Below are positions 673 through 28,674 of a stretch of 38,405 nt of DNA, in pieces. The stretch's first letter is position 1, and each line of letters starts with the position of its first letter. The notes below the pieces were generated by a model. That model did no database searches and was not told the DNA's origin. It was given only the letters and a program-made list of their open reading frames with translations. Made by a program: the position numbers and the translations under genes. Origin of the DNA: a virus (lineage: Duplodnaviria; Heunggongvirae; Uroviricota; Caudoviricetes); the IMG/VR virus record IMGVR_UViG_2639762960_000007; one strand, written 5' to 3'.

Positions 673-1245
673 TTACATTTCAGGTTGCGTTATGACAGTC
701 CCAACAGGGTGATAGCGGTAGATCGTTGACAGTCCAATATCATAGATAATTGCCAGCCGCTTTCTGTCATACCCTTTCTGGAGCAATCTTGCGATCTGCT
801 CATGCTGCTCCTTCGTCAGTTTCGGGCGACGTCCTCCAACTCTTCCTTGTGCTCGCGCAGCAGCCAGTCCTGCCAGCGTGCGCTCAACTATCAGTTCACG
901 CTCCATTTCTGCCAGTGCACCCATCATATGAAAAAAGAACCTTCCCATCGGAGTGCTGGTATCGATTGAATCCGTCAGACTGCGAAAATTGACACCTTTT
1001 GCGCGTAGCTCTTCTGTGAGAGCAATGAGGTGTTTCATTCTTCTACCCAACCGATCCAGCTTCCAGACCACCAATGTATCCCCTCTTTTAAGGCACTTTA
1101 AAGCGCGTTTCAGGCCTGGTCGTTCCGACTTGGTTCCGCTCATTTTGTCCTCAAAAATCTGTTCACATCCTGCGCACATTAATGCATTGCGTTGCAAATC
1201 TGTGTTTTGGTCATTTGTTGACACACGTATGTAGCCAATCAGCAT
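673..1245 (-). CDS. gin: Serine-recombinase DNA invertase (Gin/Pin/Hin/Cin family)
   Basis: ATG at 1243..1245 gives 190 aa starting MLIGYIRVSTNDQ (catalytic Ser motif) with a C-terminal HTH (RKRLAIIYDIGLSTIYRY). The longer track ORF starts at a non-ATG codon upstream. It lies next to the tail-fibre inverted repeats. Confidence 0.9.
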   Translation of the reverse strand: MLIGYIRVSTNDQNTDLQRNALMCAGCEQIFEDKMSGTKSERPGLKRALKCLKRGDTLVVWKLDRLGRRMKHLIALTEELRAKGVNFRSLTDSIDTSTPMGRFFFHMMGALAEMERELIVERTLAGLAAARAQGRVGGRRPKLTKEQHEQIARLLQKGYDRKRLAIIYDIGLSTIYRYHPVGTVITQPEM

Positions 1246-1311
1246 TAAAAATACTCCCTTTTGAGTGGTTAAAGTACTGAGATAATGTGGGGAGGATTTG
1301 AGAGATAAACG

Positions 1312-1510
1312 TTGGTTTGGGGGAAGGCTCTGCATTGCCTGTTGGTGTACCGGTTCCATGGCCCACCGCCACACCGCCAGCAGGCTGGTTAAAGTGCGAC
1401 GGGCGCGCCTTTACAAAAGAACAATATCCTGTTCTGGCCAGAGTCTACCCGACCCTCCGTCTTCCTGATTTACGCGGTGAGTTTATCCGTGGATGGGACG
1501 ACGGGCGCAA
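1312..1510 (+). repeat. Left arm of a ~199-bp inverted repeat flanking the invertible tail-fibre segment
   Basis: Sequence from ttggtttgggggaaggctctgcattgcc to gggacgacgggcgcaa matches the reverse complement of about 2730..2928; verified by eye over the ends and several internal blocks. Confidence 0.85.
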
Positions 1511-1829
1511 AGTTGATACAGGACGTAAGTTGCTGTCCGCACAAGGGGCAACGCTGTTAAGAACAGCAATGCTGGATTATTATAACCAGGACACTACGGG
1601 AACCTCGGGGATAGTCGGCATGGGATTCAACAATGAAGATTCCATTACAGACCTTCGTGAGGGCAGCTTTAAAATGCCGGACGGGACAACATTCAGCGAT
1701 CCTGTCATGGCAATGTCAGACAATGGTATGCAGGCTACTATTCTGACCTCTATCAGAAGCGGGTATGCGAAGGGTATCACTGTCAGACCCCGTAGCATTG
1801 CACTTAATTACATTGTGAGGGCAGTTTAA
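1317..1829 (+). other. Silent alternative tail-fibre C-terminal cassette (Sv'-like); no ATG, would be fused to the fibre gene after inversion
   Basis: Frame opens at TTG inside the inverted repeat. The first ~63 aa are identical to an internal stretch of the fibre (GEGSALPVGVPVPWPTATPPAGWLKCDGRAF...GWDDGRK), followed by a divergent 106-aa tail ending NYIVRAV (the expressed copy ends NYIVRAA). Confidence 0.7.
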
Positions 1830-2443
1830 TGAGTAACACTGCAGTTCTGGATGAAAACGGTATCGCCACTGTAGCGGGCGATATCACTGTATATCACTAT
1901 GACGAGGAAACCCGGGAATACACCTCATCCTCTGTGGAGTATCTCGCCCTTGGGGTGGGTACTCCGGCACATTCGTGCGCCGATGCACCGCCGGAGGCAA
2001 TTTCGGGTTACGTGGTTTGTCGGACTGCCACGCTGAACGGGTGGGAGCATGTGCCTGATCACCGCGGCGAGACGGTATACAGCACGGAGAACGGTAACCC
2101 CGTTCTGATTACCCAACCGGGTGATTACCCGGCGGACACCACCACAAAACAGCCGGCCACGCCATGGGATACCTGGAACGGTGAGGCGTGGGTAACCGAT
2201 ACTGAACGGCAGCGAGCCGCAGAACTGGAGGTTGCCAGACAGCAACGCCAGCAACGGGTGAAACAGGCGATGGCGTCCGTCGATCTTATCAACCTCAAAC
2301 TGCGGGCAGGTCGCAGTCTGACACCAGAAGAAACGGCAAAACTGAACGCCGTGCTGGATTATATCGACGAGCTGAACGCACTGGATATCAGCACGGCACC
2401 TGAAATCAGCTGGCCGGAAGCGCCACTGGCACTTGCCAGCTGA
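1829..2443 (+). CDS. Tail fibre assembly (chaperone) protein, Tfa / Mu U-like
   Basis: ATG at 1829 overlaps the TAA of the upstream cassette, with GAGG upstream. 204 aa with the typical Tfa C-terminal region (AKLNAVLDYIDELNALDISTAPEISWPEAP). Confidence 0.75.
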   Translation: MSNTAVLDENGIATVAGDITVYHYDEETREYTSSSVEYLALGVGTPAHSCADAPPEAISGYVVCRTATLNGWEHVPDHRGETVYSTENGNPVLITQPGDYPADTTTKQPATPWDTWNGEAWVTDTERQRAAELEVARQQRQQRVKQAMASVDLINLKLRAGRSLTPEETAKLNAVLDYIDELNALDISTAPEISWPEAPLALAS

Positions 2444-2449
2444 ACGGTA

Positions 2450-4042
2450 TCACGCCGCCCTCACGATATAGTTAAACGCGATATTGCGGGGGCGGGTTAT
2501 GTTAAAGAATGCTCCGTTTAATTCGGCTTTTGCGCGACTGTTTGTTCCACCCAGAATTGCGTACCACAAATAATCGCTACGGTAATTCCCCGCAAACACC
2601 TTATCGCCGCCATAGTCAATATTATTTCCGTTACTCATGTACGAGATATCCAGCGAAGAATCGTTATCGTCATGACCGCCGACCAGTGTACCTTTCTGCC
2701 ATGAAAGCAACTTACGCCCCTCGTCAATCTTGCGCCCGTCGTCCCATCCACGGATAAACTCACCGCGTAAATCAGGAAGACGGAGGGTCGGGTAGACTCT
2801 GGCCAGAACAGGATATTGTTCTTTTGTAAAGGCGCGCCCGTCGCACTTTAACCAGCCTGCTGGCGGTGTGGCGGTGGGCCATGGAACCGGTACACCAACA
2901 GGCAATGCAGAGCCTTCCCCCAAACCAAGGTAATTGAGGACATCTTTTATACTGCCCTTAGCGATAATCGCGCGACCAATAGCTGTAAGGGTTGCCAGCG
3001 CTGCGCGGTCTGCTCCGGTAAAATAAGGCAACCGATCTGCTGCAGTGGCAAGTCCTGCGAGAGCAGTGAGCGTGGCATCTGCCGGTTGTTTTCCGTTTGC
3101 CAGATCGTATGCAGCCTTGACCGCTTTCGGTGTGGCGGCCAGTATTTCAGACGTGCTGTTGATGGCACTGCTCAGTTGTACGGTGCCTTTTGCCGTCAGC
3201 GAGGCAGCAGGCACTCCCGTTATCTGACTCCACGGGTGAGTGTGGCTGACGGGCGCCTTGCCGGCTGCAAGGTCGTATGCAGCCTTGACCGCCTTCGGCG
3301 TGGCAGCCTCAGTTTCTGATTGACTGTCCGTGGCGCTGCTCAGTTGTACGGTGCCTTTTGCCGTCAGTGAAGCCGCAGGCACTCCCGTTATCTGACTCCA
3401 CGGGTGAGTGTGGCTGGCAGGCGCCTTGCCGGCTGCCAGGTCGTATGCAGCCTTGACCGCTTTCGGTGTGGCGGCCAGCGTTTCAGACGTGCTGTTGATG
3501 GCACTGCTCAGTTGTACGATCCCTTTACGGGTCGTTGTTGCATCCTGGGCTGTGTATTTTCCCCGGGCCAGATCATACGCGATTTTCACAGCCTTCGGCG
3601 TGGCAGCCTCAGTTTCTGATTGACTGTCCGTGGCGCTGCTCAGTTGTACGGTGCCTTTTGCCGTCAGTGAAGCCGCAGGCACTCCCGTTATCTGACTCCA
3701 CGGGTGAGTGTGGCTGGCAGGCGCCTTGCCGGCTGCCAGGTCGTATGCAGCCTTGACCGCTTTTGGTGTGGCGGCCAGCGTTTCAGAGGTGCTGTTGGTG
3801 GCACTGCTCAGTTGGGTGAACCCCTTAGCTGTCAGTGTCGCGTCCGGGTGGTTACGGGAACGTACGTGTTCAGCCAGTGACTGTGCGGCTTCCTCCGTTT
3901 TCTTCTTCAGCCATTTCGTCCTGTTTGCCAGTTGCCGGGGGGCTCGATTTGATATCCCGTCTGCACCACCCAGAACCGGATCTGATGTCTCCAGTTGATA
4001 GATATTTTCTTCCCACTTTTCTGTTTCATTCAGGTTTCCCAT
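2450..4042 (-). CDS. Tail fibre protein with tandem phage-fibre repeats; C-terminal ~93 aa lie inside the invertible segment
   Basis: ATG at 4040..4042 (the track start at 4048 is TTG); the upstream gene's TGA sits at 4045..4047. Repeated SHTHPWSQITGVPAASLTAKGTVQLSSAT..ATPKAVKAAYDLA units are fibre-repeat-like. Lies directly downstream of the baseplate J/I genes. Confidence 0.85.
   Translation of the reverse strand: MGNLNETEKWEENIYQLETSDPVLGGADGISNRAPRQLANRTKWLKKKTEEAAQSLAEHVRSRNHPDATLTAKGFTQLSSATNSTSETLAATPKAVKAAYDLAAGKAPASHTHPWSQITGVPAASLTAKGTVQLSSATDSQSETEAATPKAVKIAYDLARGKYTAQDATTTRKGIVQLSSAINSTSETLAATPKAVKAAYDLAAGKAPASHTHPWSQITGVPAASLTAKGTVQLSSATDSQSETEAATPKAVKAAYDLAAGKAPVSHTHPWSQITGVPAASLTAKGTVQLSSAINSTSEILAATPKAVKAAYDLANGKQPADATLTALAGLATAADRLPYFTGADRAALATLTAIGRAIIAKGSIKDVLNYLGLGEGSALPVGVPVPWPTATPPAGWLKCDGRAFTKEQYPVLARVYPTLRLPDLRGEFIRGWDDGRKIDEGRKLLSWQKGTLVGGHDDNDSSLDISYMSNGNNIDYGGDKVFAGNYRSDYLWYAILGGTNSRAKAELNGAFFNITRPRNIAFNYIVRAA
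2730..2928 (-). repeat. Right arm of the ~199-bp inverted repeat (inside the tail-fibre coding sequence)
   Basis: Reverse complement matches 1312..1510. Confidence 0.85.
3050..3870 (-). repeat. Tandem near-identical coding repeats inside the tail-fibre gene
   Basis: Blocks such as ccgtcagtgaagccgcaggcactcccgttatctgactccacgggtgagtgtggctggcag recur at about 3361 and 3661 (300 bp apart), with a related copy near 3210. Confidence 0.8.
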
Positions 4043-4044
4043 AA

Positions 4045-4623
4045 TCAACTGCTCCCGTGGTTATAACTGCCATCATGGATGGCGGTATTGTTATAGCGAA
4101 TGGCCACAGACTGATACTCCAGGCTGGCCAGATGGCAGCGGGCCGGTGCAAATGCAGCCAGCGTCTGACGCAGCATCGCGGCCTGATCGTTAGTAATGGG
4201 CTGTTTCAGAATAACGCGATAAACTGCCCAGGCGGCTGCATCTCCATGAACAAACAGTCCGTTATAGCTGCGATTGCCGTCGTAACTGAGACGACCTGTG
4301 CCTTCAATCAGATCCACTTCACCAAAGCCAAAACGGCGGATAACTTCCCGGATTGACCACGGCGTCCCTTTATACCGGTGCAGTTCGATGGCTGCTTTTA
4401 TAAGCATGCGGCGAACATCGTCCGATTCCGCCAGCTCCCAGCCATCGCCAGACAGTGAGAACTGCTCGCCCAGCCATGGCAGCGCGGAACTGTCGACGAT
4501 ATCGACGAGAAAGACCATCAGTACGCTCAGGTCGATGTTATCCAGCCGTCCTGCCAGTCTTCCCAGCGTCCTGAGACTGATATCACCCTCAAGCGGTGGC
4601 GGGAGTTGTAATGGCTCAGTCAT
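4045..4623 (-). CDS. Baseplate protein, P2 gpI-like
   Basis: ATG at 4621..4623 (track start at 4635 is GTG). Placed between the J-like gene and the fibre gene; translationally coupled to both neighbours. Confidence 0.65.
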   Translation of the reverse strand: MTEPLQLPPPLEGDISLRTLGRLAGRLDNIDLSVLMVFLVDIVDSSALPWLGEQFSLSGDGWELAESDDVRRMLIKAAIELHRYKGTPWSIREVIRRFGFGEVDLIEGTGRLSYDGNRSYNGLFVHGDAAAWAVYRVILKQPITNDQAAMLRQTLAAFAPARCHLASLEYQSVAIRYNNTAIHDGSYNHGSS

Positions 4624-6113: not shown

Positions 6114-6641
6114 TCAATGGGAATGGTGATTAGAGTTCTGACCATCGGCAAATATGTCACCCGTTGCATGGGCGCTTCCGTTGATTTCCAGATCACCGTT
6201 GAGTGTCGCGTTGCCGTTGATTGTGGTAACTCCCGTGAGGTCAATGCTTTTCCCTTCCAGTGAGATATCGGCGGCAACCTCCACCACGATACGCTCAATA
6301 CCTCCTCTGACCGTCAGCGTATGGGTCGCGCGGTTATAACTGAACTCCGCGCCATCAGCGTACTTCGTGCCCCGGACGTTTTTATCACTGAACGGTGGTT
6401 TATCGACGTCTGAATACACCGCGCCCAGAATAACACCATCCTCGCCGTTGGCATCGAGCAGCACCTCAACCTGCTCCCCCACGTCAGGGAGCCAGTAATC
6501 TTTGTTATCCTGGGTATTGCGCTGCAGCACGTTAAGCCAGTTTGTGCGCAGGTTATCGCATTCAGGCAGACGAACGCGGGCCTGAACCCTGTCGGCATCA
6601 ACGGCACTGACCGTACCGACCTGACGAGTGACACCAGTCAT
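6114..6641 (-). CDS. Baseplate spike/assembly protein, P2 gpV-like
   Basis: 175 aa; ATG at 6639..6641 overlapping the upstream gene's stop; Gly/Asp-rich C-terminus with His-rich tip typical of V-type spikes. Confidence 0.75.
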   Translation of the reverse strand: MTGVTRQVGTVSAVDADRVQARVRLPECDNLRTNWLNVLQRNTQDNKDYWLPDVGEQVEVLLDANGEDGVILGAVYSDVDKPPFSDKNVRGTKYADGAEFSYNRATHTLTVRGGIERIVVEVAADISLEGKSIDLTGVTTINGNATLNGDLEINGSAHATGDIFADGQNSNHHSH

Positions 6642-7810
6642 TTTTTCTTCTCTCTTATTACTGTGGACGTGCTGCCGTCCGGTTTATAGATGGTCAGCGT
6701 CCGGGTTTTGCCGGTTTTTTTACCTTTCTTCGCCTTGCCCTGTGTGACCGGCCCCCGTGCCACTTCCAGCTCTGTGGTGTAGCCGCTGTTACGCTCAAAC
6801 GCATGGAGGGCAGTGGTTATGAGCCATGGCCCGGATAACTGCCCAAAACCCACCAGTTCAATTTTGTTGCCTGCTGTCAGTTGAGGTGTTCCCGTCAGCG
6901 TCAGGGAGCCGTTCTGCTGGTATTCGTTATGTCTGGCCAGTGCTGAATCCGCTTTAATCCGGGCACTGTCCGGGTCGCTGACGCGGCTGTTAACTTTAAG
7001 TGAGTCAGCGCTGGTAACCTTACCACCTTTGAGCTTTTTGTCGCTTTCACGGGTACCACCATCAGCTTCGTAGACGATCAGTTTTTTACTGCTGCTTTTC
7101 TGGTGTTTTACCTTTGCAGATTTATAGACCCGGTTGATGGTGTCACGCAGGGAAAAGCGGGCCACATCCTGCGGTTTTAACTGCCTGACCGGCTCCTGAC
7201 TGCGCAGTGTGGCCAGATGAGAAAAAATCAGCTGGTCACTGACCACTTTCACTGCATAACCATACTCGCTGGCCAGCCGGCGCAGAAAACCCACGTCGGT
7301 TTCAGCATACTGGGTCACCCGGTCGATTCTGATGGACTCAATGCTGCCCACCAGTTTCAGTCGGTGCTTTCTGGCAATCCGCCCCGCAACAGCTGCCAGC
7401 GTGGTGTTCTCAAAACCACGACTGGTTTTAGTCCGCAGGGCACTGTTAACCGAGGTGGCCACCCCACGGATAGAAACAACGGAAGCGGGCGAACTCACTT
7501 CGATCTCGTCTATAGAGAACGTACCGCAGGACAGCAGCTTCTCGCCCTGATAGCCCATTTTCAGCGTCAGCGTGTCACCCTTGCCCGGATACCATTTATC
7601 CAGCCAGCGGCCATCGGTGTCGTCCAGCTCCACCTCAATGGTATCGGACTCATTTTTGATGTTATCGCTCCAGGTCACACGGGTGACATAAGGCGCGATA
7701 TCAGAGGTGATGTTTTTCTGCAGATACCACAAAGTGAACACCGGTGTCAGCACATCGCTGACGCCGGTTAACGCTGATGTGACTTGCGCAGTGCTGTTTA
7801 TCTCAGCCAT
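6638..7810 (-). CDS. Tail protein, P2 gpD-like (late control D family)
   Basis: 390 aa; ATG at 7808..7810; follows X and U as in P2/Mu-like tails; Lys-rich C-terminus. Confidence 0.75.
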   Translation of the reverse strand: MAEINSTAQVTSALTGVSDVLTPVFTLWYLQKNITSDIAPYVTRVTWSDNIKNESDTIEVELDDTDGRWLDKWYPGKGDTLTLKMGYQGEKLLSCGTFSIDEIEVSSPASVVSIRGVATSVNSALRTKTSRGFENTTLAAVAGRIARKHRLKLVGSIESIRIDRVTQYAETDVGFLRRLASEYGYAVKVVSDQLIFSHLATLRSQEPVRQLKPQDVARFSLRDTINRVYKSAKVKHQKSSSKKLIVYEADGGTRESDKKLKGGKVTSADSLKVNSRVSDPDSARIKADSALARHNEYQQNGSLTLTGTPQLTAGNKIELVGFGQLSGPWLITTALHAFERNSGYTTELEVARGPVTQGKAKKGKKTGKTRTLTIYKPDGSTSTVIREKKK

Positions 7811-8010
7811 GGGGCAATATCCTCTTCTGTACGGGCTTCTTCAGCCTCAATCACCGGGATCAGTAACAACAGCCCGGAGGGCAGCACCGGCGTGATGGCC
7901 ACGTGCGGATTGGCGGCAATAATCCGGGGATAGCCCAGCGGGTCGCCGTAGTACTGCCATGCCAGCGAATCCCAGCGCTCTCCGTCACGGGTAACATGTT
8001 CAAGAAACAT
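7798..8010 (-). CDS. Tail protein X-like
   Basis: About 70 aa; ATG at 8008..8010 (track start is GTG one codon upstream); ATGA overlap with the U-like gene. Confidence 0.65.
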   Translation of the reverse strand: MFLEHVTRDGERWDSLAWQYYGDPLGYPRIIAANPHVAITPVLPSGLLLLIPVIEAEEARTEEDIAPWLR

Positions 8011-8894
8011 CACACACTCCTCGTCAGTATTCTGGCGGCCATTGCACTTAATCCCGGAGACATGCGGTTGAATGCTGTGCCGGCGGCGTTAAGCTGCCCG
8101 GAAACGGTATCCAGAGCACCTGCAATATTTCTTTTGTCCACACCACTCAGCGCAGACTGTGCCTGCTGTACATACGTGACTGCTTCGCTGGCTGTTCTGG
8201 CCAGACTGATGGCATCGGGCATGGATTCAGAGAGTGCGTTAAACGCCGGAACACTTTTCCCCAGAGCCCCGGAGATATTACCCAGTCCGCTCATCAGCCC
8301 CGGCACACGGGTCAGTGCGACAACGGGGTTATCCTTCATTTTCTGTGTCACCCGAACGGCGCTGATAGTGGTCTGGAGTACAGACTGCGCCTGTTTCGCA
8401 TAGTTGACGCCGTTGCGGATGAACTGCGCCACCCCTGAAGGTGAAGGTATGGCACCGGAGACCGCCCCGACACCCGGGAGCTTCGTGCGTATTGCCGGTG
8501 GTTGCAGAGTATTTTTCGGGTCACCGGTGTATTCCCGGAGAGACACGGTGGCACTGACAGCCAGCACGTTGCCGGTACTGTCAGTCTGCTCGCTGGTTGC
8601 AGTCACATCGGTAATCACGAACCAGCCGCGATAGTCACCGTTGCCGAAGACCAGCGCCAGTGCCTGATGGGCTTTCATGGCTGTTCGCAGTCTCGCCAGC
8701 TCCACATCGGGTACACAATAATGCTGATGGAAAACCAGAGTTATCTGGATTTCGTCCAGCCTGTCGCCGACGAACTGCAGGCCAGGCTTACCCCCGATGC
8801 GGGCATGCTCCGCATAATCGACGCCGAACGTGGCCTCGAAGCCGTCCCAGTAGGTAATCAGCTCAAACTCAATATCACCCAGTACGGCAAACAT
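8010..8894 (-). CDS. Tail protein, P2 gpU-like
   Basis: 294 aa; ATG at 8892..8894; immediately downstream of the tape measure gene. Confidence 0.65.
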   Translation of the reverse strand: MFAVLGDIEFELITYWDGFEATFGVDYAEHARIGGKPGLQFVGDRLDEIQITLVFHQHYCVPDVELARLRTAMKAHQALALVFGNGDYRGWFVITDVTATSEQTDSTGNVLAVSATVSLREYTGDPKNTLQPPAIRTKLPGVGAVSGAIPSPSGVAQFIRNGVNYAKQAQSVLQTTISAVRVTQKMKDNPVVALTRVPGLMSGLGNISGALGKSVPAFNALSESMPDAISLARTASEAVTYVQQAQSALSGVDKRNIAGALDTVSGQLNAAGTAFNRMSPGLSAMAARILTRSV

Positions 8895-11845
8895 CAGCGG
8901 TACTCCTTACGTTGTTTCTGAGCCAGCAGACGCTCCAGCATTTTTTCCAGCTCATGCAGACTCATATTCAGAGCACCAGTCAGTCCTGCAGGCGCTGTGG
9001 TTTCCCTGCCATTGAGGAAAAACTGAGGATTAAAGCTGACCTGGATACCACCAGACGTTCCACCGCCGGTTGCAGCTGCACCACGGCCTGAATATCCGGC
9101 AGCCATGATTTCAGGCGAGGGGATACGGGGAACATCCGGTGTCATCTCATTTGCCAGACGTTGCCCTGGTAAAATCGATGTCCGGGTGGAGAGCGGGATA
9201 GCGGGCATGGAAGACAAACTATTGATTACGGCTCCGATCGCATTTTTAGCAGACGACATAAACCCGTTGATATCGGGCAACGGCATACTGAAGCGAACAC
9301 CTGAAGTGTTATCCCGTATTTCTGGCCCCTGAATGCTCACGGGCATTCTGGGGAGCAGTTCACTGGCCATTCGCTGCCCGGCCAGAGCTGCAAGCGGAGT
9401 GGTCCGCTGCAGGCCAATGGCGGCCCCCTGCGCGATATTGTCACCAAAGCCCATAAACACGCGGCTCGGCGAATGAATACCCAGCTTTTCACTGAACCAG
9501 CCACTGATGCTGTCACCCATTCCGGTTACACTGGATTTGAGCGACTCCCATTTGTTTTTGATACCGTTAATCAGACCGTCGACAAGATGGCCACCGAAGT
9601 CGGTGAACTTTGCCGGCAGATCAACACCAAGATATTTCAGCGCAGCTGCAAAGGCTTTATAGAGCAGACCTGCCGGCGACCAGTTAATCAGCAGCTTACC
9701 AGTTCCCGCGATACCGCCGTTAAAGGCTTCCTGAATGTCAGCCCAGCACTGTTTAAACCAGCTACTGATGCTGTCACCCATTCCGGTTACACTGGATTTG
9801 AGCGACCCCCATTTGTTTTTGATACCGTTAATCAGACCGTCGATAAGATGGCCACCGAAGTCGGTGAACTTTGCCGGCAGAGCAACGCCGAAATATTTCA
9901 GCGCAGCCGCAAAGGCTTTATAGAGCAGGCCTGCCGGCGACCAGTTAATCAGTAACTTACCAATTCCCACAATGCCGCCGTTAAAGGCTTCCTGAATGTC
10001 TGCCCAGCGCTGTTTAAACCAGCCACTGACTGCCCCCCAGTTGCGGTAGATAAGGTAAGCTGCTGCCGCGACAGCGGTGATAACGAGACCGATGGGATTC
10101 ATCATCAGCGCACGTCCAATCCAGAGAACAGCACGTCCGGCGAGCATAATTCCGCGAACCAGCCCCCCGGAGAGCACGCCACTCAGTGTTCTGGCTCCTC
10201 TGGCGACGGCGCTAAATCCGGTCACCAGCCAGCGGAGCTTACCGCCTTGCCCCAGTGCGAGCGACAGACGAAGCCAGTTGGCCCGAAGTAAAACAGCATT
10301 TTTCCAGACACTTACAAAGGGGGAAATAAGGAGATTCAGCCCCAGTTTGAGACCAACAGTCGCTATCTTAATCGCAAGGAGCGCACTGATGAGCTTAAAA
10401 GCCCCACTGACAAATTGCGGGTGAGTCGCTACCCAGTGTTTTGCCCCCTGAATGAGTGGAAGCAGTTCCTGAGTCAAAGAAATAAAAGATGGAGCTAATT
10501 GATCGCCCAGCGTAATTGCCAGATCGCGACTGCTGACCATAAGTGTTTTAGTGGCTTCAAGGGGAGATTTCAGCCGCTGATCATAAGCACTGGCAAGCAA
10601 ATCGTTATCCGCAGCCCTGAGAGCACCGGCACGGATCTCTCGATATCTGTCCATGTTGGCCAGCATCGGGCGGATAAATGCCATGACCTGCATATCCGCG
10701 AACATATCGCCCAGACCAAAGTTTTTCGCCAGAGCCTGAAGTGCCTCATCTCTTGCCGTATCATTCTTTATTTTCATGGCTGATTTGAAGCCGGCCAGCG
10801 CTTCGGGGCTTTTGGCATTGAGGTAACGTTCTATAACACTCAACATCCCTTCAATCGGAGAGATCCCCGCAGCTTTATAACTCGCAATAGATCCCTGCAA
10901 ATCAATACCCAGATCAGCAAACTGTTTCTGAGTATCGCGGGCAAAAATTTTGGTAAGAAAGTTTTTAAAATTATTGGCTGCTTCGTCGGTGGAACCTGCA
11001 CCGATTTTTGCTATCTGGAGACTGGCCCCGATTTCAGCAACAGCCTCTTTTCCACTGGCAATACCCGCCATCATTGGGGCCAGGGACTGCATCCACTTGA
11101 CCTGATCCGGGATTTCAAATGACCCCTGGTCACCGGCATAAGCCATAATATTCTGAACGGCACCAAAATCTCTGGCCGCACCTTTCAGGGAGTTTTGCCA
11201 GACTGCGGCCACTTTTGCCCAGTCCTGAGCAGACGTGCGTGTTGCCGTTGCCGCGCGGGCAATATCCGGCATCAGAAAACCGATATCTGACACATTATCA
11301 ATATTGTCGCTGATGAGTGAACCCACCGCCTCCTGCAGCTCATCCTGATACTGATTGTATTTAAGCGCCCAGCCTTTTATCTGTCCGGCAAGTGCATCCC
11401 GCGTTTTATTGTCATATTTTGCGGTGATCGACATATCAATCATTTTGTCCTGAAAAGACATGGACTGCTGAACGGCAGGGGAAACCGTATGATAAACAGT
11501 CTGTGCCATGCCATACGCTTCAATCCCCTGACCATACAGCGCCATGCGGTTAGCTTTCAGCGCATCACTGGTAGCGGATGCCGCTGACAGACGGCGCTGC
11601 TGGCGCTCAATTTGCTCCATGGTGCGGCTTACCCGCAGCAGCTCGCTGTTGAGATGCTGCATCCGGGAAGAACCCAGTTGACCATAACGTTCTGTTGCAC
11701 GGGTTAAAGCGTTCTGACGTTCCTGCAGGCGGCGTGAGGTATCGCTCAGGGAATCAAGCGCACGGCGGGTACCGCTCATTGCAGAACGGAATGTGCTGCC
11801 AATCATCCCGCCGATAACAACGCCGACTGAAAACTGTCCCGACAT
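8894..11845 (-). CDS. Tail tape measure protein
   Basis: 983 aa; ATG at 11843..11845; long helical N-terminus, hydrophobic central segments, internal tandem duplication; sits between the chaperone and U-like genes. Confidence 0.85.
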   Translation of the reverse strand: MSGQFSVGVVIGGMIGSTFRSAMSGTRRALDSLSDTSRRLQERQNALTRATERYGQLGSSRMQHLNSELLRVSRTMEQIERQQRRLSAASATSDALKANRMALYGQGIEAYGMAQTVYHTVSPAVQQSMSFQDKMIDMSITAKYDNKTRDALAGQIKGWALKYNQYQDELQEAVGSLISDNIDNVSDIGFLMPDIARAATATRTSAQDWAKVAAVWQNSLKGAARDFGAVQNIMAYAGDQGSFEIPDQVKWMQSLAPMMAGIASGKEAVAEIGASLQIAKIGAGSTDEAANNFKNFLTKIFARDTQKQFADLGIDLQGSIASYKAAGISPIEGMLSVIERYLNAKSPEALAGFKSAMKIKNDTARDEALQALAKNFGLGDMFADMQVMAFIRPMLANMDRYREIRAGALRAADNDLLASAYDQRLKSPLEATKTLMVSSRDLAITLGDQLAPSFISLTQELLPLIQGAKHWVATHPQFVSGAFKLISALLAIKIATVGLKLGLNLLISPFVSVWKNAVLLRANWLRLSLALGQGGKLRWLVTGFSAVARGARTLSGVLSGGLVRGIMLAGRAVLWIGRALMMNPIGLVITAVAAAAYLIYRNWGAVSGWFKQRWADIQEAFNGGIVGIGKLLINWSPAGLLYKAFAAALKYFGVALPAKFTDFGGHLIDGLINGIKNKWGSLKSSVTGMGDSISSWFKQCWADIQEAFNGGIAGTGKLLINWSPAGLLYKAFAAALKYLGVDLPAKFTDFGGHLVDGLINGIKNKWESLKSSVTGMGDSISGWFSEKLGIHSPSRVFMGFGDNIAQGAAIGLQRTTPLAALAGQRMASELLPRMPVSIQGPEIRDNTSGVRFSMPLPDINGFMSSAKNAIGAVINSLSSMPAIPLSTRTSILPGQRLANEMTPDVPRIPSPEIMAAGYSGRGAAATGGGTSGGIQVSFNPQFFLNGRETTAPAGLTGALNMSLHELEKMLERLLAQKQRKEYR
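9495..10016 (-). repeat. Two tandem ~261-bp direct repeats inside the tape measure gene, plus the start of a third
   Basis: actgatgctgtcacccattccggttacactggatttgagcga at 9503 recurs at 9764; the encoded 87-aa units (WFKQRWADIQEAFNGG...GMGDSIS) are nearly identical. Confidence 0.85.
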
Positions 11846-11920: not shown

Positions 11921-12178
11921 CTATGATTTGTCGCCGTACTCGCTTTTTATTTGCTCTTCAGCCTGCTCCAGCCACATCTCCAGATCGTCAGTATCGAGGG
12001 CATCAATCTCCCCCGGCTGAAACCGGAACCATCTCGCCAGCAGCCCCTGCGCCTGCGTCAGCGCCCTGGTTGCTCTCACCCATCCCCGTGATGAGCTGAA
12101 ATCGTTTCTGTAACTGCAGGTAATCAGCCAGATCCATATTGTCGAGATCTTCCGGGAGAAGACCAGTACTGCGGGCAA
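11921..12178 (-). CDS. Out-of-frame extension ORF overlapping the 3' end of the tail chaperone gene (E'-like; putative frameshift product)
   Basis: ORF in the +1/-2 frame relative to the E-like gene, overlapping 12003..12178 and running to 11921. This is the standard position for a programmed frameshift in tail assembly chaperones. The slip site was not identified. Confidence 0.4.
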   Translation of the reverse strand: MPAVLVFSRKISTIWIWLITCSYRNDFSSSRGWVRATRALTQAQGLLARWFRFQPGEIDALDTDDLEMWLEQAEEQIKSEYGDKS

Positions 12179-12338
12179 TCAGCGGTTCGTCCCAGTCTGC
12201 CGGGTTTTTGCTGATTTTGCGCACCTGCTTCAGGTCTTTTACCGTCAGGCGTTTCAGTTCAACCAGCTCAATTCTGGTACCTGCAGCAGTGGTGAAGGGA
12301 TAAGACAATTTAAAAGTATCGGATGGGGTCTGTGACAT
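12003..12338 (-). CDS. Tail assembly chaperone, P2 gpE-like
   Basis: 111 aa; ATG at 12336..12338; lies just upstream of the tape measure gene with an overlapping second-frame ORF. Confidence 0.6.
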   Translation of the reverse strand: MSQTPSDTFKLSYPFTTAAGTRIELVELKRLTVKDLKQVRKISKNPADWDEPLIARSTGLLPEDLDNMDLADYLQLQKRFQLITGMGESNQGADAGAGAAGEMVPVSAGGD

Positions 12339-12719: not shown

Positions 12720-13241
12720 TCAGCCCCCGATATTGATACGGTAGTCAGTCAGTTGATCAACACCGCCGACCCGGAAGATGTTGGCCAGATAGTCCAGTTG
12801 CAGCAGCTCTTCACCATCCAGTACCTGTCTGATATACGTGCAGGTGAAGCTACTGGAGAACTCGGCGTTCTCGTGCTGTTTGAACGTCCCCAGCGGGTTC
12901 TTCTTGAACATAATCGTCAGGAAGGTGACCAGCGGGATTTCGTCAATCAGCCCCTGCGAGCTGTAGCGCTGGACGCTGGAACGACACTGCAGTGCCAGCG
13001 ACCTGTACGGGTTCGCGGCAGACAGCATCGCATCGCGGTAAAAGCTGTTCCATTTGATTTCGCCTTCCAGTTTGTCAAAACCAGCCGGGAGTTCCACCTT
13101 ACCCACCATCCCCAGCGCCTTGTGTTCCTGCATAATCATGGAGACATCGGGGAGTTTAACTTCCTCAGCCCGTCCCAGCAGGTTAGTACCATCCAGATAG
13201 ATGTTGGCATTCGTGATGCGGTTTATCTCAATCTTTGACAT
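12720..13241 (-). CDS. Tail tube protein (P2 FII-like)
   Basis: 173 aa; ATG at 13239..13241 in ATGA overlap with the sheath stop; sheath-tube order. Confidence 0.8.
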   Translation of the reverse strand: MSKIEINRITNANIYLDGTNLLGRAEEVKLPDVSMIMQEHKALGMVGKVELPAGFDKLEGEIKWNSFYRDAMLSAANPYRSLALQCRSSVQRYSSQGLIDEIPLVTFLTIMFKKNPLGTFKQHENAEFSSSFTCTYIRQVLDGEELLQLDYLANIFRVGGVDQLTDYRINIGG

Positions 13242-14668
13242 CAGTTGCCCCCTTTCAGGGTTAACAGGTATTCCGAGGTGATCTCAGTCTCAAACGTCAG
13301 TCGCTCCAGCGGCGGTGGTGGCGTATATTTGTAGCTCAGCAACAGGTGCCCGGCGGCCAGCTCCGTCTCCGGATTGCGGGCCGGATCAAACCAGCAACGG
13401 AAGCCCAGTACCGCACCATCACCAGTCATTTTGCGACCGTAGGCGTTGACCGACTCCGTCAGTGCATCAATCAGCGCCTGAGTAATCGGCATGTCGATGT
13501 ACTGCTGGCTGAAATAACGAATGGACTCGTTGATCACATCACCGGTGCGGCGAACGTTCTCAAAGTTACGCATATGGGTGACCGTTGGCCATGCTGCCGT
13601 CCGGTTACCCCACAGACGAAGGCCGCTGCCGTAACTGCTGAATACCGTGGTGATCCCCTGTTCGTTAAGCAGGTTCACCTCACTCTGCGGGTCATCAATC
13701 ATCGCGGACAGCTGGCGCTCCACGCCGGTGATCCCCAGAATCTCCTGATTGGAGGATGACCACCAGTAGCCCTTGTCCAGATCGACTCTGGCACGCAGAC
13801 CTGCTGCACGCTGGCTGAGCGGCTCCAGACGCTCTGTGTTTGTCACCGGGTCATATACCTTCACATGCGGATAGCACAGACGGACGCGGTCGGAGCTGGT
13901 ATTGAAGTTGATGGTGCCTTCCGGGCCACGACCTGCCAGAGCCTGTGCAAAGGTGGTACCGACAGGCGCATCAATGTAGGTTACCGCGCCCAGCTTCTCT
14001 GCCATGGCGATAAGCTCAACTGCGACACTCTTCTGGGTGCAGAACACCGGCGCAATCAGAATTTTGGCGAAATAGCCGTACAGGTTGAAGCTGTCGTTAA
14101 GCAGCTTCATGCCGGTTCGGTTTCCGGCGCTGTTCACCCCGCCGATGATGTCCGCCGCAGTCACCTTCGACGGGTCCGCGTACTCATAGCTCACCTTCAC
14201 GCTGCCACCGGCCTCAATAGCCTTGCCCAGGTTCGTGAGCACACCCGCCTGCGCATCAACACGGTAGTCCGTGTTCGCCGTGTGGGTGGTGCTGCCTTCA
14301 CTGTTTTTCACCACCACATTAGCGACAACCGGATGCGCCAGTCTGGCCTGCCCTGTCGATTTGTCAAAGGTAACCACCTCATCCTCGATCGCCGTTTTAT
14401 GTTTCGCCGGGTCGAGGACGTTAATGACCAGAACGGTGCCTGCACCATGGTCATAAATCGCATCCAGCGCCTGCGGAATGGTAAAGCCGGTGAACTGGCT
14501 GCCAAATGCCGCTGCGTCTTTCTCAGACAGGCACTGTACCAGCGTATTGACATCCCCCATCGGGGCGGTACCAATCAGGCCAATAACGGCAGATTTCACC
14601 GTTTTAACCGGGCGGGCACCGTTTTCCACCTCAATGGTTTCGGGACCATGCAGATAGTTAGCTGCCAT
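13241..14668 (-). CDS. Contractile tail sheath protein (P2 FI-like)
   Basis: 475 aa; ATG at 14666..14668 preceded by GGAGG; size and position typical of myovirus sheath. Confidence 0.9.
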   Translation of the reverse strand: MAANYLHGPETIEVENGARPVKTVKSAVIGLIGTAPMGDVNTLVQCLSEKDAAAFGSQFTGFTIPQALDAIYDHGAGTVLVINVLDPAKHKTAIEDEVVTFDKSTGQARLAHPVVANVVVKNSEGSTTHTANTDYRVDAQAGVLTNLGKAIEAGGSVKVSYEYADPSKVTAADIIGGVNSAGNRTGMKLLNDSFNLYGYFAKILIAPVFCTQKSVAVELIAMAEKLGAVTYIDAPVGTTFAQALAGRGPEGTINFNTSSDRVRLCYPHVKVYDPVTNTERLEPLSQRAAGLRARVDLDKGYWWSSSNQEILGITGVERQLSAMIDDPQSEVNLLNEQGITTVFSSYGSGLRLWGNRTAAWPTVTHMRNFENVRRTGDVINESIRYFSQQYIDMPITQALIDALTESVNAYGRKMTGDGAVLGFRCWFDPARNPETELAAGHLLLSYKYTPPPPLERLTFETEITSEYLLTLKGGN

Positions 14669-27666: not shown

Positions 27667-28674
27667 TTAAACCTCAGTCATCCACATTTCCCTAAATTCT
27701 TCAGGTACATTACGTAGGGTGATAATATTTGTTTCCGGATCATAATCAATATAGCCTTCAGTTTTCCCTTCCCGGTCAAACTTAAGTTCCCAATATTTAG
27801 ACTTGCCTTTAAAAGATACCAGAGCCCGAATGACTCGACCATCAGGAACGAAGCCATCCGATAACTCCAACTCTTCAGCAGCAAGTTTACCAGATAACTC
27901 CTCGGGAGCCTGGGGCCAAATGGCATTAACAAGGGTTTCAAGACTAAGTGGTTCACCAGCCTTACTTAGTGCATGTAAGTGTTCAAACGCACTCTTAAGA
28001 AATGCATCTTTTTCAGCGCCGTCAAGTCCTTTCTCTGCCGCAAATGCTTTTAAAACGTCACGTAACTTTTCAGACTCTCGTTTGGCGATTAAGACATCAT
28101 TACAGCCTAGGAACTGTTTAAAATAGTTTGAAACATTACCTTGCCCCTTAAGAAAACTGATATAGCGCTCTGCGCCACTTTCCCACGCGGTTAAGTCAAT
28201 GCGCCCAGCCATACGCAGCTTAGCAATATCAAGATAGGTACTATCTTGGATGTTAAAATCATCTGTGACAGTGGACCCAATGGTAGCGCTTACAATAGCT
28301 ATCAACAGGTGTTCATTGTGTCCTATCACGATATTTGCAAAAAGAACATAACCACCAGTAGCCATGTTTTCTCGCTGAGAACGTTCCGTCAGGTGATGCA
28401 TCATTCGGCAGGAACTTTGGTAGAAATCATCAACACCTTCGAGAAAGTCCCCAGCCATTCGTTCCATAGGATAGTTATCCGTATCGCCTTCAAAATAGCC
28501 ATAACCTTTACCTGTGCGTCCTGCATATTTTGCACAAATATCGTTTATAAGGCGCTGAGAGGCTTCAGTAACTAGACCTTCTTCAGGACTCAATCTCTCA
28601 GAAGCGTCTCCATTTTGTTGTTTGTCTAAAATGTGAACTACAACGTGTTTAACTTCAATGGTCTGCTCAGACAT
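27667..28674 (-). CDS. NdpA/YejK (NA37)-like nucleoid-associated-protein homologue; first gene of the repressor-linked cassette (candidate sensor)
   Basis: 335 aa; ATG at 28672..28674 preceded by GGTGGA. It matches the length and several blocks of E. coli YejK as I recall it (GGYVLF, LLIAIVS, YLDIAKLRMAGRIDLTAWESG, RYISFLKGQG, IITLRNVPEEFRE). The family call is from memory, not a search. Confidence 0.55.
   Translation of the reverse strand: MSEQTIEVKHVVVHILDKQQNGDASERLSPEEGLVTEASQRLINDICAKYAGRTGKGYGYFEGDTDNYPMERMAGDFLEGVDDFYQSSCRMMHHLTERSQRENMATGGYVLFANIVIGHNEHLLIAIVSATIGSTVTDDFNIQDSTYLDIAKLRMAGRIDLTAWESGAERYISFLKGQGNVSNYFKQFLGCNDVLIAKRESEKLRDVLKAFAAEKGLDGAEKDAFLKSAFEHLHALSKAGEPLSLETLVNAIWPQAPEELSGKLAAEELELSDGFVPDGRVIRALVSFKGKSKYWELKFDREGKTEGYIDYDPETNIITLRNVPEEFREMWMTEV

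Follow-up and report, generated by a model that had tools for sequence, protein, structure and literature searches.

A copy-number-variable 87-residue tandem module in the tape measure gene of a BcepMu-like Escherichia coli prophage

The stretch of viral DNA analysed here (Caudoviricetes; IMG/VR virus record IMGVR_UViG_2639762960_000007), referred to as the window at its full length of 38,405 nucleotides (nt), carries on its minus strand the gene for a tail length tape measure protein (TMP) of 983 amino acids (aa), in which a module of 87 residues is present as two head-to-tail units. Among related prophages of E. coli the same gene is found with one, two or three units. It is considered highly probable that the array represents a copy-number-variable TMP module of a BcepMu-like E. 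coli prophage, shaped by duplication, divergence and unequal recombination, with a predicted contribution of ~13 nm of tail per unit. The gene and the parts of the array are located as follows.

8894..11845, minus strand: tail length tape measure protein gene, 983 aa (open reading frame, Pfam, PHROG and RefSeq annotation)
9769..10029, minus strand: repeat unit 1 (A type), coding nt 1817–2077, about aa 606–692
9508..9768, minus strand: repeat unit 2 (B type), coding nt 2078–2338, about aa 693–779, differing from unit 1 at 17 of 261 nt
9495..9507, minus strand: border microhomology S-G-W-F, 13 nt, where the similarity ends; the motif flanks single units in relatives

Tandem Repeats Finder delimited the array at 9495..10029, with a period of 261, 2.0 copies, 93% matches, 0% indels and a score of 951. 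Direct comparison of the two head-to-tail units gave 244 identical positions out of 261, the remaining 17 being mismatches without any indel; on the coding strand no similarity to the unit was seen upstream, and at the other end it ceases 13 nt into the next period. As no second repeat of comparable size and identity was detected by the same program elsewhere in the window, the array is not due to chance. Since 261 nt correspond to 87 codons, the reading frame is kept across the array, and the codon-aligned units (aa 606–692 and 693–779) differ at nine residues. The TMP open reading frame (ORF) is the only long one at this position. The in-frame 261-bp tandem duplication described in the initial annotation, as well as its frame, can be seen directly.

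The initial annotation had further described two nearly identical units followed by the start of a third. The former part stands, while the supposed third unit is reduced to the 13 nt at 9495..9507. In the single-unit alleles of IAL7250, AW1.7 and GABEEC10 the motif S-x-W-F occurs at both edges of the lone unit, and in two of them, IAL7250 and AW1.7, an exact 8-nt sequence, TGGTTCAA, is found at both unit borders. Because single-unit relatives carry the motif at both unit edges, the 13-nt stretch is read as microhomology at the original duplication border and not as a truncated third copy. This shared border motif is the likely place of the original slippage or illegitimate recombination.

The assignment of the array-bearing gene to the TMP family, made from sequence and gene context together, agrees with what had been proposed for it initially. 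The protein matches Pfam PhageMin_Tail (PF10145) at 2e-20 with 74 bits (cutoff 33.2) and PHROG family phrog_28 at 7.8e-135; phrog_794 and several further TMP PHROGs also match, both phrog_28 and phrog_794 being described as "tail length tape measure protein", and RefSeq names identical and near-identical genes "phage tail tape measure protein". The order of genes on the minus strand is sheath (13241–14668), tube (12720–13241), gpE-type chaperone (12003–12338), TMP, gpU (8010–8894) and gpD (6638–7810), which places the TMP gene between the chaperone and gpU/gpD. Its immediate neighbours are the following.

12003..12338, minus strand: tail assembly chaperone of gpE type, upstream of the TMP gene (Pfam Phage_TAC_7, 5.5e-21)
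8010..8894, minus strand: P2 gpU-like tail protein, downstream of the TMP gene (Pfam Phage_P2_GpU, 7e-39)

The TMP gene was present in 636 of 5426 complete E. coli genomes, and three lengths, directly observed as an allelic series with intact ORFs at the loci fetched, account for the one-, two- and three-unit genes.

2691 bp ORF, 896 aa, one unit: UPEC129, EcPF7, AVS0947
2952 bp ORF, 983 aa, two units: the window, ST131 O25b:H4
3213 bp ORF, 1070 aa, three units: A1.S1.65, 10034292-3, AR Bank #0349, Z0117EC0117

Unit classes were counted in the same 5426 genomes by split-flank BLAST, in which the query consists of the two flanking pieces and these are joined only when the gap is smaller than half the query length plus 500 nt. 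The count for at most one unit (N ≤ 1) returned 19 genomes, 13 of them one-unit genomes at 99% identity; it is an undercount, because ST131-type alleles have one diverged flank. At N ≤ 2 and N ≤ 3 the counts were 469 of 626 and 585 of 633 genomes, respectively, with about two single-unit genes in every 50 sampled rows of either. An additional query for the single-unit ST131 background, in which a 609-nt gap is still joined, repeated the N ≤ 2 count (448 of 617). The classes are thereby estimated at ~450 two-unit genomes and ~116 with three units; in ~20 there is a single, recombinant unit, and in ~48 the gene is diverged or partial. The single-unit number is approximate (the 19 genomes plus ST131-type cases such as AVS0947). 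In an independent collection of 5.8 billion proteins the same length classes of 896, 983 and 1070 aa were recovered, two 1070-aa clusters being backed by 25 and 17 contigs. As for four or more units, neither an unjoined high-identity class in the N ≤ 3 count nor a protein of 1157 aa among the top-scoring clusters was found.

It is clear that the two-unit state is the majority allele and no peculiarity of the window prophage. Single-unit relatives, with which the window had been contrasted in the initial annotation, do exist, as TMPs of 896 aa and of 821–825 aa. The possibility raised there, that relatives all carry the same two diverged units as an ancient fixed feature, proved right as regards the prevalence and age of the two-unit state and wrong as regards fixation, with one- and three-unit alleles recurring.

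Some matches covered only positions 602–2952 of the query, and a mosaic boundary at the repeat edge, with a different C-terminal module beyond it, was considered for them. This was rejected; the genes proved to have three units in an intact ORF of 3213 bp, and the matches are limited in this way because BLAST split the alignment at the extra unit. The genome of E. coli 510016 (NZ_CP025851.1) apparently contains two related prophages, at ~817959–820309 and ~4810914–4811722, which behave as one three-unit and one two-unit allele and would permit recombination between prophages. Rarer lengths of 961, 995 and 1084 aa were also seen in the protein collection. The TMP of SCU-387 (961 aa) has a 22-aa deletion upstream of the array; protein P0034 (995 aa) has a 12-aa duplication at the unit junction and protein P0018 (1084 aa) a 101-aa tandem duplication that reaches from the hydrophobic segment into the beginning of unit 1, each of the latter two known from a single contig and thus possibly an assembly error.

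The 17 sites that separate unit 1 (A) from unit 2 (B) were used as markers of the origin of each unit. The single units of UPEC129 (aaaaaaaaBaBBBBBBB) and EcPF7 (aaaaaaaaaaBBBBBBB) are A-type in the 5' part and B-type in the 3' part, with a crossover between sites 100 and 121, and in that of AVS0947 a 5' end derived from ST131 unit 1 is followed by the 3' part of ST131 unit 2 with the private substitutions of the latter. Three-unit alleles are composed of an A unit, a B/A chimera and a B unit, the middle unit reading BBBBBBBaBaaaaaaaa or BaBaaa...., with the crossover at sites 66–74 in one group and at sites 5–20 in another. The protein clusters agree, in that every middle unit of three-unit proteins is 5'-B/3'-A, at least four crossover intervals are present in the single-unit clusters, and many two-unit alleles are gene-conversion mosaics. 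The chimeric junctions are thus visible in the alleles themselves, and so is the independence of the events: the flanks form two haplotype groups, each of which includes one-, two- and three-unit alleles. Between AVS0947 (one unit) and ST131 O25b:H4 (two units) none of 2430 flanking nt differ, and because of this identity the contraction in AVS0947 must be very recent.

The A/B contractions and the B/A middle units are reciprocal products, and therefore point to unequal crossing-over between misaligned units. Judged from these patterns, copy-number change is to be ascribed to recurrent unequal homologous recombination in independent events, and most near-identical single-unit alleles to secondary collapses of the two-unit allele, not to ancestors of it. 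The suggestion in the initial annotation that the duplication is a recombination hotspot is well supported by the reciprocal chimeric units and the many mosaic a/B patterns.

Synonymous divergence (dS) between unit 1 and unit 2, calculated by NG86, was 0.168 and nonsynonymous divergence (dN) 0.046, giving a dN/dS of 0.27, from which it follows that both units are under purifying selection. Outside the repeat, the window and ST131 alleles differ by a dS of 0.075; the higher value between the units indicates that the duplication is older than the split between window and ST131. By this measure the duplication is old and common to most relatives, neither recent nor private to the window genome. 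The diverged alleles of IAL7250, AW1.7 and GABEEC10 (821–825 aa) have one unit with A and B states interleaved at the 17 sites, and polarisation by these single units assigns eight derived changes to A and six to B. Such interleaved outgroup states fit an ancestral single copy that was duplicated once.

A second length-variable part was recognised in protein alignments further downstream in the gene.

9167..9379, minus strand: 71-aa segment, aa 823–893

The diverged 821–825-aa alleles lack this segment, which the window has in common with ST131 and related alleles, and its edges carry similar direct repeats (GQRMASE.../GQRLANE..., motifs GQRMASELLPRMPVSIQGPEI and GQRLANEMTPDVPRIPSPEI). It is a second, older length change in the TMP gene.

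A history in three steps may be proposed for the array. An ancestral single unit, kept in the 821–825-aa alleles, would have been duplicated once, probably by slippage or illegitimate recombination at the 8–13-nt microhomology (S-x-W-F) present at both unit borders. Copies A and B would then have diverged under purifying selection. At a length of 261 bp and 93% identity, the two copies lend themselves to unequal homologous recombination, which would repeatedly have given rise to one-unit alleles (A/B chimera, 896 aa) and three-unit alleles (A, B/A, B; 1070 aa) and also to the gene-conversion mosaics.

Internal tandem repeats in TMPs and the setting of tail length by TMP length are textbook knowledge. 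For lambda and T4, tail length is described as set by the length of the TMP in PMC13585406, with reference to Katsura & Hendrix 1984 and Abuladze 1994. In-frame deletions and duplications in lambda, T4 and TP901-1 are summarised as changing tail length linearly by ~0.15 nm per residue (PMC13585406, PMC5099701, PMC9928086), a value also used as a working rule (PMC9928086); in TP901-1, removal of 347 aa from the TMP reduced tail length from 118 to 65 nm, i.e. by 0.153 nm per residue (PMC5099701). By analogy with these three phages, a longer tail than in single-unit relatives, as predicted in the initial annotation, is a reasonable expectation. Each unit would add ~13 nm (87 aa × ~0.15 nm/aa; roughly 9% of the length), the tails of one-, two- and three-unit prophages being predicted at ~134, ~147 and ~160 nm, and the related prophages with one, two and three units would probably have three tail lengths. 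Adjacent to the array, the TMP gene encodes the following features.

10307..10417, minus strand: first hydrophobic segment, aa 477–513 (Kyte-Doolittle, 19-aa window, >1.5)
10046..10132, minus strand: second hydrophobic segment, aa 572–600, directly upstream of the array (same criterion)
9455..9481, minus strand: G-I-H-S-P-S-R-V-F motif, aa 789–797, just downstream of the array, invariant in 6/6 aligned alleles

These features bear on the question of whether the copy number, even if real, is neutral for tail length, the module lying outside the ruler part in a cleaved, baseplate or membrane-inserting portion and altering envelope penetration or DNA-channel formation, or nothing. This is unlikely. 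In its favour, the array starts directly after a hydrophobic segment and ends just before the widely conserved GIHSPSRVF, in the C-terminal third of the protein (aa 742–830 are matched by many TMP PHROG families), and C-terminal parts of some TMPs, such as lambda gpH and T5 Pb2, are processed or active in membrane passage. Several points weigh against the reading given at the outset, on this and other grounds. Beside its hydrophobic segments, the array could be folded or sit in the baseplate, instead of being extended in the tube lumen; the structural approach yields no constraint, as a single-sequence AlphaFold model of aa 541–846 was uninformative (nearly all helix at a predicted local distance difference test score, pLDDT, of 42) and a PDB sequence search retrieved no solved relative. 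The ruler rule was established in lambda, T4 and TP901-1 and not in BcepMu/P2-type tails. The class sizes of ~450, ~116 and ~20 genomes are dominated by clonal ST131 and hence are not counts of events, and some single-unit alleles from short-read assemblies could be collapse artefacts. Against neutrality for tail length speak the deletions in TP901-1, of which those in the repeat region and those in the adjacent hydrophobic region both shorten the tail linearly (PMC5099701), the purifying selection on both copies, and the repeated amplification of the module with varied borders in distant TMPs, which fits tolerance of, or selection for, changes in length.

Quite unlikely is an origin of the two units by recombination between TMP alleles of different prophages, that is, by a mosaic join instead of internal duplication and divergence. 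The inter-unit dS of 0.17 does exceed the window–ST131 divergence of 0.075, some genomes harbour two related prophages (e.g. 510016, with a three-unit and a two-unit copy), and phage tail genes are highly mosaic. However, an unequal crossover between alleles would likewise duplicate the unit in tandem and by the same mechanism, which makes this reading a variant of the preferred one rather than a genuine alternative; moreover, the outgroup single units interleave A and B states, the 8:6 derived split is that expected from one ancestor, and among the alleles examined there was no single-unit allele of pure A or pure B type over all 17 sites. It is extremely unlikely that the differences in copy number are assembly artefacts altogether, with collapse producing the chimeric single units, mis-joins the third units, and all real prophages having two. 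A de Bruijn assembler switching between 93%-identical copies would yield exactly an A/B chimera, the record of phage PhiKM (PQ738613, 3628–3952) has a gap of 100 N exactly in the array with the TMP annotated as two coding sequences, and the 995- and 1084-aa oddities come from one contig each. Nevertheless, all genomes counted are "complete genome" assemblies, identical one- and three-unit alleles recur in many genomes that come from different laboratories in different countries (13 with one unit, at 99% identity, and ~116 with three) with an intact frame and consistent diagnostic patterns, repeat collapse does not produce expansions, and the three length classes have multi-contig support in the independent protein collection.

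The preferred reading, a module duplicated once and afterwards varied in number by unequal recombination, would be taken a step further if selection in the prophage family maintained the one-, two- and three-unit alleles as a polymorphism of tail length, in effect a "tunable ruler" of low copy number. This is quite unlikely. If true, a change of one unit would serve to match how far the contractile tail reaches to the thickness of the host envelope or capsule, and the independent amplification of the module with many periods in distant TMPs would be explained.

The distant TMPs were reached by searching one 87-aa unit against 1.84 billion representative proteins, which gave 579 clusters at E ≤ 1e-3. 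Among the best 150 of these 579 clusters, 27 have the module in two or more near-full tandem copies, each of 60 aa or longer, and further distant clusters have partial duplications of it, which are the source of shorter periods. The spacings are 42–44, 49, 54, 72, 76 (the commonest), 83, 87, 91, 105 and 113–114 aa, and such varied spacings and borders imply that the TMP module has been duplicated many times independently; no convincing common quantum was found among the periods of 42–114 aa.

Like lambda gpH, T4 gp29 and the TMP of TP901-1, the present protein is a long product of the tail gene cluster with hydrophobic segments and a repeat-bearing region; to none of the three is it closely related in sequence. 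The length variants of those phages were engineered, whereas here a natural series of one, two and three units is found within one prophage lineage. Natural tandem units of variable number, arising by duplication and loss, are known from mycobacteriophage and other siphophage TMPs as 11-aa Trp/Phe repeats (Belcaid et al. 2011, PMC3271669); in the present case the unit has 87 aa and the tail is contractile. The array is not of that type, because the unit region showed no excess of aromatic periodicity at lag 11 or 18 in autocorrelation. The gene order is that of BcepMu gp44, phiE255 gp18 and P2 gpT-type TMPs, the tail module being P2-like and the phage a transposable, Mu-like one. The TMPs of BcepMu and phiE255 are homologous (33–36% identity over aa 1–816), and unlike them and the P2-type proteins, the E. 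coli clade has in addition the duplicated 87 aa and an insert of 71 aa. KP12 and Phi06_2974 B (64% identity), the nearest named phages in the TMP comparison, align over only ~2400 nt, as against the 2952 nt of the present gene, which is consistent with one unit.

Coding minisatellites or variable-number tandem repeats, such as those of bacterial surface proteins, share with the array the in-frame head-to-tail units, the polymorphism on identical flanks and the reciprocal chimeras. They differ from it in that only one to three copies occur here and the units are 7% diverged, and therefore this is a low-copy system, probably a slow-changing one; the alleles compared gave no evidence of programmed or high-frequency switching of copy number. 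No published description of this TMP copy-number polymorphism was found within an incomplete coverage of the literature, in which a search for PhiKM yielded only papers on unrelated phages of the phiKMV type. The array is a clear and here well documented example of a known phenomenon, and it leaves the understanding of phage tails unchanged. Its use lies in the natural series itself: one-, two- and three-unit alleles of a Mu/P2-hybrid prophage with a contractile tail, one pair of them with identical flanks, on which the ruler rule could be examined beyond the classic models. The prophage is very common in clinical E. coli, ST131 included, and the series is suited to asking whether tail length affects host range. 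In practical terms, the array breaks assemblies, as in the PhiKM gap, and misleads annotation: A1.S1.65 and Z0117EC0117 both have an intact three-unit ORF of 3213 bp, yet in RefSeq these genes are labelled pseudogene or partial by PGAP.

Elsewhere in the window there are genes for a P2-like baseplate and for a tail fibre, the latter accompanied by a serine invertase cassette, as well as for a DDE transposase and a MuB-like ATPase, and the Mu-type head genes portal, Mu F and gp27. Among named phages the nearest is Escherichia phage PhiKM, which is placed in Bcepmuvirus and is the only closely related isolated phage on record. On account of the P2-like tail, the Mu-type head and transposition genes and the matches to PhiKM and BcepMu, the window is identified from its gene content as a BcepMu-like transposable E. 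coli prophage whose contractile tail is of the P2 type.

At its left end (1–642) the window has a fragment of a host major facilitator superfamily transporter gene, and therefore the prophage end is placed near position 650, adjoining the invertase gene. The serine invertase (673–1374, minus strand; Resolvase 1e-50 and HTH_7) adjoins an opposite-strand Collar-domain ORF (1317–1829, plus strand), which together with a tail fibre assembly gene (1829–2443, plus strand) faces the tail fibre gene (2450–4048, minus strand). The layout of 673–4048 looks like an invertible host-range cassette of the Mu G-segment/Gin type. The tail fibre gene has an in-frame tandem repeat of its own at 3098–3526 (period 168 bp or 56 aa, 2.6 copies, 85% matches), corresponding to five Pfam Phage_fiber_2 repeats. 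Between the head and transposition genes, a homologue of the 37-kDa nucleoid-associated protein (Pfam NA37, 1e-80) is encoded at 27667–28674.

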